From assembly GCA_034435615.1 (NCBI GenBank), contig DAOTWZ010000034.1, forward strand, positions 4,381 to 68,380: a stretch of 64,000 nucleotides of DNA, read 5' to 3'. Positions 31,862 through 54,062 of the stretch are shown piece by piece. Both the position numbers and the translations under genes were made by a program. The notes beneath the pieces are model-generated. The model was not told where the DNA came from. It saw only the letters and a list, made by a program, of their open reading frames with translations, and ran no database searches. This stretch comes from Dehalococcoidia bacterium (GTDB lineage Bacteria; Chloroflexota; Dehalococcoidia; SM23-28-2; HRBIN24). The first letter of the stretch is position 1; every line of letters begins with the position of its first letter.

Positions 31862-31919
31862 GAACGGGGAGACGGAGAAGGACGAGGCCCTGATGGCGGG
31901 CCCCCCGGCGGGGCCCGCC

Positions 31920-32711
31920 TCACTCTATCTTCTCGATCCGGAAGCGGACGCGGCCCGCCGGCACCTGCACCTCCACCTCGTCACCAGGCCGGCGGTCCAG
32001 GAGGGCCCGCCCGACGGGCGAGGCGCTGGAGATGCGGCCGCCGCTGCCGCTGGCCTCGCCCGGGCCCACCACCGTGTACTTGAGGAGGCGGCCGTCCGCC
32101 AGGTTGCGCAGGTGGACGGTGCTCCCCAGCTGGACGCGCTGGCCGGACTCGTCCTGGGAGGGGCCGTCCACGATGACCGCCCGCCGGAGGATGGACTCTA
32201 TCTCCCGGATGCGCGTCTCCAGGTGGGATTGCTTCTCCCGGGCGGCCTGCAAGGGGGCGTTCTCGCGAAAGTCCTTGTCCAGGGCGGCGCGACGTATCTC
32301 CTCGGCGATGAGGGGACGCTGGGCCTTCAGGGACTCCAGCTCCGCCTGGAGTGCGGCGTAACCCTCCGCCGTCATCTCCACGGGGGCGGCAGCGGGGGCC
32401 GCCCGCCTGGGGGCCTGGGCGCGTCGCACCCGCACGTGCTGGGCCAGGGCATGGGGCACCAGCTTCCTCTCGCGGAGGTAGGACAGGAACTCCTTCAGGG
32501 CCTGGGCCCGTTGCTGGGCCGTCTCCCCGCTCCCCAGGTTCCCCGATTCCACATAGCGGGCGATGTCAGGGCCCTGGAGCTGGTTCAGGGCGGCATCGCG
32601 GCCGTACCAGTTCACGAAGTCCAGGACGACGCGGCGGGCCTCCGCCTGCCGGCCGGCCTCCAGCGATGAGAGGTAGTTTTCTGCCGCCTGGGCGAGTGTG
32701 ATGGACTCCAT
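31920..32711 (-). CDS. GreA/GreB-family transcription elongation factor homologue with about 100-aa N-terminal extension resembling integrase SAM-like/core-binding domain
   Basis: Start at ATG (plus-strand cat 32709-32711). The C-terminal 160 aa align to GreA (coiled coil plus FKBP-like domain, VVGPGEASGSGGRISSASPVGRALL); the N-terminal 100 aa are separate. Confidence 0.72.
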   Translation of the reverse strand: MESITLAQAAENYLSSLEAGRQAEARRVVLDFVNWYGRDAALNQLQGPDIARYVESGNLGSGETAQQRAQALKEFLSYLRERKLVPHALAQHVRVRRAQAPRRAAPAAAPVEMTAEGYAALQAELESLKAQRPLIAEEIRRAALDKDFRENAPLQAAREKQSHLETRIREIESILRRAVIVDGPSQDESGQRVQLGSTVHLRNLADGRLLKYTVVGPGEASGSGGRISSASPVGRALLDRRPGDEVEVQVPAGRVRFRIEKIE

Positions 32712-32753
32712 GGCAAAATTCCATTCTAGGGAAAGCGAGGAGGGACGGTCAAC

Positions 32754-33509
32754 GTGGAGGAGAGCTCGCAGGGGCAGCAACTGGAGGTGCTGCAGGCCGG
32801 GGCCGCCCGGCTGGGCGTCCCTCTGGAGGCCGGGACTTTGGAGCGCTTCGCCCTCTATTACCGCGAGCTGGCGAAGGCGGCGCCCCTGCTGGACCTCACC
32901 AGCGTCGTAGGGCCAGAGGAGGTGCAGCGACGCCATTTCCTGGAGTCCCTGGCGGTGGGCCGGGCCTTGGAGGAGCTGGGGGTGCTGGACCGGGAGCGGC
33001 CGCTGCGGGCCATCGATATAGGCGCCGGGGCGGGCTTCCCCGGCCTGCCCATACGGCTGGCCTGGCCCCGCCTCCGCCTCACCCTCCTGGAGGCGAGCCG
33101 GCGCAAGGCGGAGTTCCTGCGTCGCCTGGTGGATGCCCTGGGGCTGGGGGACGTGGAGGTGGTGTGGGCGCGGGCCGAGGAGCTGGCCCGCCAGCCAGCC
33201 CACCGTGAGTCCTACGACCTGGCCCTGGCCCGCGCTGTCGCCTCCCTGCCCGTCCTGGTGGAGCTATCGCTCCCCCTGCTGAGGGTCGGTGGCTACCTGG
33301 CGGCGCCCAAGGGGAGCCGGGCCCTCCAGGAGATGGCGGAGGCGCGGGGGGCGCTGGCCGCCTGCGGGGGCGACCAGCCCGTCGTCCATCCCCTACCACC
33401 TCTGGGCGGTGGCACCCTGCCCCTACTAGTTTTGGTGAGAAAAGCGCAGCCAACGCCAGAGCGCTACCCCCGACGGCCCGGTATACCCGAAAAGCGGCCG
33501 TTGCGGTAA
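32754..33509 (+). CDS. rsmG: 16S rRNA (guanine527-N7)-methyltransferase RsmG
   Basis: GTG start at 32754; SAM-binding IDIGAGAGFPG motif and GidB family similarity. Confidence 0.85.
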   Translation: MEESSQGQQLEVLQAGAARLGVPLEAGTLERFALYYRELAKAAPLLDLTSVVGPEEVQRRHFLESLAVGRALEELGVLDRERPLRAIDIGAGAGFPGLPIRLAWPRLRLTLLEASRRKAEFLRRLVDALGLGDVEVVWARAEELARQPAHRESYDLALARAVASLPVLVELSLPLLRVGGYLAAPKGSRALQEMAEARGALAACGGDQPVVHPLPPLGGGTLPLLVLVRKAQPTPERYPRRPGIPEKRPLR

Positions 33510-52005: not shown

Positions 52006-52479
52006 ATGGCCATGGCCGATAAGCCGATACCTGTTACCCGTGAGGGCCTGGCCCGCTTCAAGGAGCGGCTGGAGTACCTCATCAACGTGCGTCGGCCACA
52101 GGTGGCCAAGCGCATACAGGAGGCGCGAGAGCTGGCCGGCTCCGAGACCTCTGGCGAGTACGAGGACGCCAAGAACGAGCAGGCCATGGTGGAGGGGGAG
52201 ATCCGCCAGCTCGAGACCATCATCCAGAACGCCGTCGTCATCGAGGGGCGGCCCGACTCTCAGGTGGTGGATCTGGGCTCCACCGTCACTCTGGTGGACG
52301 ACGAGGGGAAGGTCTACCGTTACACCATCGTGGGCAGCGCCGAGGCCGACCCCAAGCAGGGCCGCATCAGCAACGAGTCCCCCCTGGGCCGGGCCCTTCT
52401 GGGCCGCCGCGCCGGCGAGGTGGTGGAGGTGCAGGCCCCCGCTGGCGTCAAGCGCTGGACCATCGTCTCCCTTGGCTAG
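52006..52479 (+). CDS. greA: transcription elongation factor GreA
   Basis: 158 aa from ATG 52006; GreA coiled-coil and FKBP-like domains. The track TTG at 51961 lies inside the U-tract. Confidence 0.9.
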   Translation: MAMADKPIPVTREGLARFKERLEYLINVRRPQVAKRIQEARELAGSETSGEYEDAKNEQAMVEGEIRQLETIIQNAVVIEGRPDSQVVDLGSTVTLVDDEGKVYRYTIVGSAEADPKQGRISNESPLGRALLGRRAGEVVEVQAPAGVKRWTIVSLG

Positions 52480-52595: not shown

Positions 52596-54062
52596 ATGGA
52601 CGAGGTCACCGCTCGCAGGCACCGGGTGGAGCGACTGCGCGCCCGCGGCGTGGACCCCTACCCCGCCCGCTTCCACCGCACCCACAGCGCCCGGGAGTCC
52701 ATCGCCCTCCTGGAGCGGCTGGAACGGGAGGGGGGCGACTCCCCCCAGGTGGTGGTGGCGGGGCGCATCACCGCCATCCGCGATATGGGCCGCGCCACCT
52801 TCATAGACCTGCGGGACGGCTCCGGCCGCATCCAGACCTACCACCGGGTGGACCTCCTGGGCCAGGAGGCCTATCGCGGCCTGGAAGACCTGGACCTGGG
52901 CGACTTCCTGGGCGTGACGGGGGAGCTCTTCCGCACCCGCACCGGGGAGCCCACCGTCCAGGCCCGCTCCTACACCCTCCTCTGCAAGGCGCTGCGCTCC
53001 CCACCCGAGAAGTGGCACGGCCTCCAGGACGTGGAGACCCGCTACCGCCAGCGCTACCTGGACCTCATGGCCAACGAGGAGGTGCGGGAGCTCTTCCGCA
53101 CCCGCAGCCTCATCGTCCGGGCCATCCGCCGCTTCCTGGACGAGCGTGGCTTCCTGGAGGTGGAGACGCCGGTCCTCCAGGCCACCGCCGGCGGCGCCGC
53201 CGCCCGCCCCTTCGTCACCTACCACAACGCCCTGGACCGCCAGCTCTATCTGCGCATAGCCCTGGAGCTACACCTGAAGCGCCTCATCGTCGGTGGCTAC
53301 GACAGGGTCTACGAGCTGGGGCGCGTCTTCAGGAACGAAGGGGTCTCCGCTAAGTACAACCCCGAGTTCACCATGCTGGAGGCCTACCAGGCCTACGCCG
53401 ACTATCTGGACATAATGCAACTGACGGAGGAGATGGTGGTCTATGCCGCCCGGGAGGCCCTGGGCACTCTCCAGGTGCCCTATGGCGACACCGTCATAGA
53501 CTTCACTCCCCCGTGGCGGCGCCTCACCCTGCGGGAGGCCATCCTGGAGCACACGGGGATCGACTTCCGGGCCTTTCCGGACGCCGCCTCCCTGCGGGAG
53601 GCCTGCCGGGGCATCGGGCTGGTGCTGGAGGAGGGGTGGGACCGCGCCAAGCTCATTGATGAGCTCCTCTCCCAGCGGGTGGAGCCGCGGCTCCTGCAGC
53701 CCACCTTCCTGATGGACTACCCGGTGGAGCTCTCGCCCCTGGCCAAGCGCAAGAGGGACGACCCGGGCCTGGTGGAGCGGTTCGAGCTCTTCATCGCCGG
53801 CCGGGAGGTGGCCAACGCCTACAGCGAGCTCAACGACCCCATAGACCAGCGGGAGCGCTTCCTGGAACAGGCGCGGCGGCGGGCGGCCGGCCAGGAGGAG
53901 GTGGAGCTGGCGGACGAGGACTTCCTCGTCGCCCTGGAACACGGTATGCCGCCCACCGGCGGCCTGGGCGTCGGCATCGACCGTCTGGTGATGGCCCTCA
54001 CCGGTCAGTCCTCCATACGGGAGGTGATCCTCTTCCCCGCCCTGCGGGAGAAGGCCGACTGA
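52596..54062 (+). CDS. lysS: lysine--tRNA ligase (class II)
   Basis: Class II motifs plus an anticodon-binding OB fold. Confidence 0.95.
   Translation: MDEVTARRHRVERLRARGVDPYPARFHRTHSARESIALLERLEREGGDSPQVVVAGRITAIRDMGRATFIDLRDGSGRIQTYHRVDLLGQEAYRGLEDLDLGDFLGVTGELFRTRTGEPTVQARSYTLLCKALRSPPEKWHGLQDVETRYRQRYLDLMANEEVRELFRTRSLIVRAIRRFLDERGFLEVETPVLQATAGGAAARPFVTYHNALDRQLYLRIALELHLKRLIVGGYDRVYELGRVFRNEGVSAKYNPEFTMLEAYQAYADYLDIMQLTEEMVVYAAREALGTLQVPYGDTVIDFTPPWRRLTLREAILEHTGIDFRAFPDAASLREACRGIGLVLEEGWDRAKLIDELLSQRVEPRLLQPTFLMDYPVELSPLAKRKRDDPGLVERFELFIAGREVANAYSELNDPIDQRERFLEQARRRAAGQEEVELADEDFLVALEHGMPPTGGLGVGIDRLVMALTGQSSIREVILFPALREKAD

Follow-up and report, generated by a model that had tools for sequence, protein, structure and literature searches.

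What would a transcript-cleavage factor of the Gre family do with a recombinase-type domain at its N-terminus? The question is raised by a gene located at 31920-32711, on the minus strand, of a stretch of 64,000 nucleotides from a Dehalococcoidia bacterium (assembly GCA_034435615.1, contig DAOTWZ010000034.1, positions 4,381 to 68,380), hereafter called the window. Factors of this family serve all bacteria in proofreading and in the relief of arrest. In the protein encoded here, named CB-Gre, a GreA-like body is preceded by a core-binding (CB) domain. The explanation considered as the best as a whole, with a probability of roughly 0.6, is that the CB domain is tethered by a linker of about 12 residues to a GreA-type cleavage factor, with a second Gre protein of the same window, named short Gre, as its non-cleaving competitor. 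The gene and its modules are the following.

31920..32711, minus strand: CB-Gre fusion gene, 263 residues plus a TGA stop, open reading frame read from the sequence
32418..32711, minus strand: CB domain, residues 1-98, four-helix tyrosine-recombinase core-binding (SAM-like) fold, from the AlphaFold2 model and profile matches
32382..32417, minus strand: linker, residues 99-110, Ala/Pro/Arg-rich and flexible, from its 13% pairwise identity and low model confidence
32181..32381, minus strand: Gre N-terminal coiled coil, residues 111-177, Pfam PF03449
32250..32279, minus strand: tip motif DKDFRENAPL, residues 145-154, with D147/E150 equivalent to D41/E44 of E. coli GreA
31923..32180, minus strand: Gre C-terminal FKBP-like domain, residues 178-263, Pfam PF01272

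The frame is uninterrupted from the ATG at 32711 to the TGA at 31922-31920. An earlier note on this DNA, made from the sequence alone, had placed it correctly and had given it 264 residues; this is the number of codons including the stop, the product being of 263 residues. The identical product is present in the NCBI gene call on the public contig VAPR01000206.1, which carries the exact protein.

The two-part architecture with a complete GreA-like body, also described in the earlier note, is confirmed: both Gre domains of Pfam are found C-terminal to the N-domain, i.e., PF03449 (GreA_GreB_N) at residues 112-180 (E 1e-18, 67.8 bits vs. a cut-off of 24.5) and PF01272 (GreA_GreB) at residues 190-263 (E 1e-22, 80.2 bits vs. 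a cut-off of 26.9). Among 40 diverse relatives the mean pairwise identity is 64% for the coiled coil (helices 115-144 and 152-176 in the AlphaFold2 model), which is the most conserved module, 54% for the Gre C-domain, 45% for the CB domain and 13% for the linker. The Gre body is 40% identical to short Gre and 37% identical to E. coli GreA. The tip motif aligns without gaps to E. coli H39-GDLKENAEY, D147 falling on D41 and E150 on E44. Both residues are invariant in the family alignment, and D..EN[AS] is kept in 313 of the 320 full-length family members; the exceptions are D..DN, a change from Ala/Ser to Val after the Asn (D..EN remaining intact), or visibly frame-shifted gene calls. In E. coli GreA, D41 and E44 are essential for the activation of cleavage (PMC7527559). 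The Gre body of CB-Gre has the structural features by which GreA/GreB proteins are defined. Like canonical E. coli GreA (PF03449 + PF01272), CB-Gre has a two-domain Gre body, a D-x-x-E-N tip in register and an acidic coiled coil; unlike it, CB-Gre has an additional CB domain of 98 residues with its tether, and is not adjacent to lysS.

The N-domain has the core-binding (SAM-like) fold of tyrosine recombinases. Its AlphaFold2 model (residues 1-98, built from an alignment of 40 sequences) has a predicted local distance difference test score (pLDDT) of 92.2 and a predicted template modelling score (pTM) of 0.84, and is made of helices 6-16, 19-36, 47-55 and 62-81, followed by a conserved tail N88-L89-x-x-H92-x-R94. 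All the strong structural neighbours of this model are DNA-binding CB domains. The best PDB sequence match of the family profile is 3nrw_A (E 0.0017, 87 of the 97 profile positions), and hhalign aligns the domain to the N-domain of XerD with an E-value of 0.006, the NLAxHLR motif lying on DPSAHLA of XerD. The earlier note had suspected a SAM-like recombinase domain and had let the fusion stand or fall with the integrase similarity of the first 100 residues; this similarity is detectable. The invariant or nearly invariant residues of the domain are F32, W35, G37, Y53, R68, F75, N88, L89, H92 and R94.

The Pfam families most often matched by members of the CB family are Phage_int_SAM_1 (6 of 40 members, best E 0.006) and Phage_int_SAM_4 (5 of 40, best E 0.0014), always below the gathering score. 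With residues 1-104 of the window protein as a single sequence, nothing significant is obtained in Pfam, and the only hint in NCBIfam for its N-terminus is XerC (E 0.047). Because the CB domain stays below the Pfam thresholds, the additional domain is missed in annotation and databases report only «GreA».

CB-Gre shares the CB fold with tyrosine recombinases (XerC/D, lambda Int, PDB 3nrw) and differs from them by its fusion to a transcription factor and by the absence of a catalytic domain (R-K-H-R-H/W-Y) after the CB domain, the remainder of the chain being the Gre body. CB-Gre is thus not a recombinase, the domain fold alone being in common. The length of the linker is held to 11-17 residues across the family despite the absence of sequence conservation. 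The model of the full-length protein has a pLDDT of 91.9 and a pTM of 0.49, with low confidence at residues 99-110, i.e., the modules are well folded and the CB domain has no predicted fixed packing on the Gre body.

The distribution of the fusion was obtained by scanning one genome per GTDB species, and the 80 best loci were examined. A relative of CB-Gre is encoded in at least 451 species genomes. Each of the 80 best loci has one full-length open reading frame whose match spans roughly residues 1-263, the match starting at residue 22 or 32 in a few of them; this answers positively the question, put in the earlier note, of whether relatives encode the same fusion. Their labels are Chloroflexota, Dehalococcoidia or «Chloroflexia» metagenome-assembled genomes, the single exception being a 2.6-kb contig binned as an archaeon and probably mis-binned. 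A first search gave 446 significant homologues; among the 120 listed, nearly all have 255-280 residues and 100% query coverage. The profile of the N-domain, run against 1.84 billion representative proteins, gave 524 clusters (50% identity) at E <= 1e-3, of which 318 reach E <= 1e-10. Of the 150 clusters listed, nearly all those of full length are Gre fusions of 255-285 residues, and those that are shorter derive from truncated or chimeric gene calls. Since the matches listed are nearly all Gre fusions, the N-domain appears almost exclusive to this architecture. With a Dehalococcoidales-type member as query, thousands more matches are obtained, all of 264-285 residues. The fusion is thus real, conserved over hundreds of Chloroflexota species and under selection, and is not an artefact.

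Among the matches of the N-domain, P0302 (with an MTHFR tail) and P0333 are examples of truncated or chimeric gene calls. In P0377, a single cluster representative, the Gre body is replaced by a tail rich in Cys, with two zinc ribbons and a weak match to DUF6300, behind the CB-like N-domain; this protein may show another architecture of the CB domain, or may be a chimeric gene call.

The in-frame GTG (V111) and ATG (M113) present where the Gre body begins suggest another reading of the gene, i.e., that the functional protein does not include the product of the first 110 codons, either because translation starts near V111/M113 or because an assembly or frameshift artefact has joined two genes. 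The start at the internal GTG had been named in the earlier note as a case in which the fusion fails. It is unlikely in view of the relatives: neither position 111 nor position 113 is conserved as a start in the family alignment, where the motif is mostly V/I-E-L-T or A-Q-L-T, and no Shine-Dalgarno is found in the sequence ahead of them. The codon periodicity is alike in both parts of the gene: the G+C at third and second codon positions (GC3/GC2) is 0.89/0.44 in the N-terminal part vs. 0.93/0.46 in the Gre part, this frame being a coding one in the N-terminal part as well. Moreover, a promoter adjoins the ATG at 32711:

32723..32752, minus strand: sigma-70-type promoter TTGACC-N18-TAGAAT, from a promoter scan with 1 site vs. 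0.1 expected

Its -10 hexamer ends 11 nucleotides 5' of the ATG, and TTGAC-N17/18-TAGAAT is present at a constant distance from the ATG (-17 to -19) in 6 relatives of CB-Gre, down to 43% protein identity. No Shine-Dalgarno is found between this promoter and the ATG; given how close the -10 hexamer is to the ATG, the predicted mRNA is leaderless or has a leader of about 5 nucleotides. With the continuous frame in all 80 related loci fetched (from the at least 451 species genomes) and an N-domain that is conserved as a protein and folds with a pLDDT of 92, both the internal start and the artefact were rejected on the basis of the homologues, the periodicity, the promoter and the unconserved V111/M113; an untranslated N-terminus is judged extremely improbable. 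In the other direction, the mechanical open reading frame continues upstream to a GTG at 33203, overlapping the divergent rsmG (32754-33509, plus strand; PF02527), and none of the relatives of CB-Gre carries the extension from 32711 to 33203.

The two divergent genes are tightly packed: 42 bp (32712-32753) separate the ATG of CB-Gre (32711) from the GTG of rsmG (32754), the start codon of rsmG directly adjoins the -35 box of the CB-Gre promoter, and the Shine-Dalgarno of rsmG (GGAGG) sits within the spacer of the CB-Gre promoter. Because of this overlap, the promoter of rsmG must fall inside the coding region of CB-Gre.

The role of CB-Gre cannot be separated from that of the second Gre protein of the window:

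52006..52479, plus strand: short Gre paralogue, 157 residues, above the Pfam and NCBIfam GreA cut-offs

A tblastn search of the 64-kb window gave two Gre genes only, CB-Gre and this one. In the earlier note it was a canonical greA of 158 residues; the gene does exist, its product has 157 residues, and its tip is not canonical. In the ungapped alignment to E. coli GreA, AGSETSGEY stands in place of the catalytic GDLxENAEY, D41 being replaced by G and E44 by T. Its NCBIfam GreA scores are nevertheless above the cut-offs (155.3 vs. 145 and 146.7 vs. 139). The 120 closest relatives of short Gre are also without the acidic pair (G41 in 117, N44 in 115), their tip being mostly V/A-G-A-Q-N-T-P-E-Y (VGAQNTPEYED). 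The neighbours of short Gre are a FakA-like (Dak2) gene on one side and lysS (52596-54062) on the other, with a NUDIX gene and serS beyond lysS. Close relatives keep the series FakA-like, short Gre, lysS, and a more distant relative keeps short Gre, lysS, NUDIX, serS. Judged from these alignments, the lysS-adjacent paralogue has lost both catalytic acidic residues across a whole clade.

Because short Gre has lost the acidic pair and CB-Gre keeps it, the fused protein is the better candidate cleavage factor. The framing of the fusion as an accessory second copy, adopted in the earlier note, is thus not supported: CB-Gre is probably the working transcript-cleavage factor and the roles are probably reversed, as far as can be read from the two tips.

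For short Gre, a model is given by Gfh1 of Thermus, Rv3788 of M. tuberculosis and archaeal TFS4, i.e., that of a non-cleaving competitor occupying the channel. Gfh1 and Rv3788 are non-cleaving paralogues of the secondary channel that keep acidic tip residues (PMC4598747), whereas short Gre is without both D41 and E44. TFS4 is an archaeal inhibitor paralogue acting at the secondary channel (PMC5715097). By analogy, short Gre resembles these non-cleaving secondary-channel paralogues.

The mechanism proposed for CB-Gre comes from established Gre biology, according to which CB-Gre would be the transcript-cleavage factor of the lineage. The Gre C-domain binds the beta' rim helices of RNA polymerase. 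Accordingly to this scheme, (i) the C-domain of CB-Gre would dock on the rim helices and its coiled coil would enter the secondary channel; (ii) D147 and E150 would position Mg2+ and water to cleave backtracked RNA, as in E. coli GreA; (iii) the basic CB domain, having no recombinase catalytic partner, would stay outside the channel on its tether; (iv) it would add a nucleic-acid contact, probably sequence-independent, the most plausible target being duplex DNA near the polymerase; (v) this contact would raise the occupancy or the dwell time of the factor on elongation or initiation complexes; (vi) short Gre, without the acidic pair, would compete for the same channel as a non-cleaving regulator.

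The CB domain is basic family-wide (mean isoelectric point (pI) of 9.5, mean net charge of +3.4). Conserved Arg/Lys are found in 13 columns of the alignment (22, 31, 34, 40, 46, 67, 68, 73, 80, 81, 94, 96 and 97), among which 31 and 34 belong to helix 2, 67, 68, 73, 80 and 81 to helix 4, and 94, 96 and 97 to the tail. In recombinase-DNA structures, helices 2 and 4 contact DNA. Nucleic-acid binding by the CB domain, as predicted from the pI and the Arg/Lys columns, is plausible, and the basic N-domain probably acts as a tethered anchor that holds DNA or RNA polymerase.

Several observations weigh against the explanation preferred here: (i) the Gre body of CB-Gre is just under the NCBIfam GreA cut-offs (136.0 vs. 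139 for TIGR01462, 135.5 vs. 145 for NF001263 and 136.9 vs. 167 for NF001261), and the short paralogue passes the NCBIfam GreA cut-offs that the fused body narrowly misses; (ii) the count of two Gre genes covers 64 kb of the genome, and a third, fully canonical Gre may be encoded elsewhere; (iii) the co-residence of CB-Gre and short Gre is known from this window, and the comparison of the sample records for P0004 and P0124, made for the co-occurrence of the two paralogues, gave no shared record; (iv) the CB domain of the window protein and of its closest relatives has lost 7 of the 13 basic positions (Q22, D31, N34, A40, Q46, Q67 and E81), with a net charge of +2 vs. the family mean of +3.4, and this loss weakens the argument for a predicted DNA binding by the window protein in particular; (v) a CB fold on its own is no proof of DNA binding.

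The fourth point gives some weight to a different role of the N-domain, i.e., that of a protein-protein module without DNA binding, placed on RNA polymerase near the secondary channel (beta' rim, jaw or a lineage-specific insertion) or on another transcription factor; the fold would then be a recombinase legacy reused as an adaptor. A conserved protein partner would fit the conservation of the CB domain, which is about that of the Gre C-domain (45% vs. 54%), and the subclade of the window, having lost many basic residues, keeps F32, W35, Y53, R68, F75, L89, H92 and R94. On the contrary, the strongly basic character of the family (pI 9.5), the conserved Arg/Lys of helices 2 and 4 and of the tail, and the structural neighbours, which are all DNA-binding, are in favour of a nucleic-acid contact. 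AlphaFold2 gives no confident docking of the CB domain on the Gre body (pTM 0.49), which is a point against such a module and says nothing on RNA polymerase. A pure protein adaptor is considered as rather unlikely; a contact of the CB domain with RNA polymerase itself is the main rival of the preferred explanation.

The earlier note had itself put forward a promoter- or DNA-targeted factor. As a sequence-specific regulator, CB-Gre would read a defined DNA motif with its CB domain and so bring its Gre module to certain promoters or genes. Recombinase CB domains do contribute to the recognition of core sites, and the recombinase-derived ALOG domains reportedly act as sequence-specific transcription factors. 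Against this targeting, no conserved neighbours and no hint of a regulon are found, no repeated motif came up (no search aimed at one was made), the CB domain is isolated from its recombinase C-clamp partner, and a general factor is suggested by the single copy per locus and by CB-Gre being the sole Gre of the window whose tip is catalytic. Targeting to particular promoters is clearly improbable, more so than the protein adaptor.

No conserved gene neighbourhood of CB-Gre is found across the 80 loci, from which no functional partner can be inferred; rsmG is divergent upstream at about 20 loci and citrate synthase is downstream at about 15, in the nearer relatives only, the neighbours being different in those more distant. 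No mobile-element context is seen around CB-Gre. An origin in a defence system or a phage was rejected: PADLOC gives no hit for a defence system, and PHROG gives no match for the N-domain, the one weak phage match (E 6e-4, function unknown) being on the Gre part. CB-Gre behaves like a stand-alone housekeeping gene.

Other unusual architectures of Gre proteins can be compared with CB-Gre. The extended Gre of Chlamydiae and Spirochaetes (NF004969, NF011309) have, like CB-Gre, the Gre body at the C-terminus of a longer protein, their extensions of 550-750 residues being unrelated to the CB domain. CB-Gre aligns to NF004969 («transcript cleavage factor/unknown domain fusion protein», 718 positions) at 569-704 (score of 38.5 vs. 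a cut-off of 697), and to NF011309 (906 positions) at 761-901 (77.9 vs. a cut-off of 714), i.e., on the Gre part in both cases. The TPR-GreA/B-C-PIN conflict systems, which are unrelated to CB-Gre, contain the Gre C-domain only, with effector domains, and are fast-evolving (PMC8195603). They share with CB-Gre the presence of a Gre domain in an unusual architecture; CB-Gre differs from them in keeping the whole Gre body, in being housekeeping-like and in having no PADLOC hit. On the side of the CB domain, ALOG (plants) and Ndc10 (yeast centromere) are cases in which recombinase CB-type domains have been reused as stand-alone DNA binders; unlike CB-Gre, they are eukaryotic, show only distant similarity and have no RNA polymerase-binding factor attached. 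In a full-text literature search, no Gre factor was found described as having a CB, SAM-like or integrase domain. The sole paper found with both GreA and Dehalococcoidia is a proteome and acetylome study that is silent on domain architecture.

The remaining observations concern the surroundings of the gene. A palindrome lies between the convergent genes of CB-Gre and citrate synthase:

31895..31919, minus strand: perfect 10-bp G+C palindrome (GGCGGGCCCC-N5-GGGGCCCGCC)

With its loop of 5 nucleotides it folds at -30.9 kcal/mol (z -2.5). It is not called by the terminator scan, being without a T-run (U-tract); from its sequence and position it may be a bidirectional terminator hairpin. The window has 69.7% G+C, and Rfam gives no match at gathering thresholds over its whole 64 kb. 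The genes around CB-Gre are of the housekeeping type: ctaA/ctaB, cytochrome oxidase, citrate synthase, rsmG, a Yip1-family membrane protein, a major facilitator superfamily transporter and an AIR-synthase-like (AIRS-domain) protein. The contig VAPR01000206.1 (locus L001), on which the exact protein is found, belongs to assembly GCA_006214125.1. In the same assembly, VAPR01004664.1 (locus L092) carries a different CB-Gre, 68% identical, also in the order rsmG / CB-Gre / citrate synthase; with these two differing contigs, the assembly is a metagenome-like mixture of two or more related organisms.

CB-Gre is widespread and is undetected as a fusion by current domain models, the current annotation labelling both genes of the window «GreA» and missing the CB domain. 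The host group is environmentally abundant and poorly studied. Gre factors are thought to find RNA polymerase through their C-domain only. If the explanation given here is true, a Gre that carries, throughout a lineage, a tethered DNA-binding domain of recombinase type would represent a new route of recruitment or retention for a secondary-channel factor. Bacteria would then also offer a case of a recombinase CB domain domesticated for transcription, comparable to the ALOG domain of plants. The widest form of this idea remains tentative and is somewhat doubtful, i.e., that Dehalococcoidia-type Chloroflexota might have rewired their channel factors, the lysS-side greA having become non-cleaving and the sole competent Gre being tethered to DNA via a domesticated CB domain, which would make CB-Gre the first such factor with its own DNA-binding module, its position being set both by DNA and by RNA polymerase. 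The pair formed by CB-Gre and a short Gre without the acidic residues would be a natural system to study the competition for the secondary channel.

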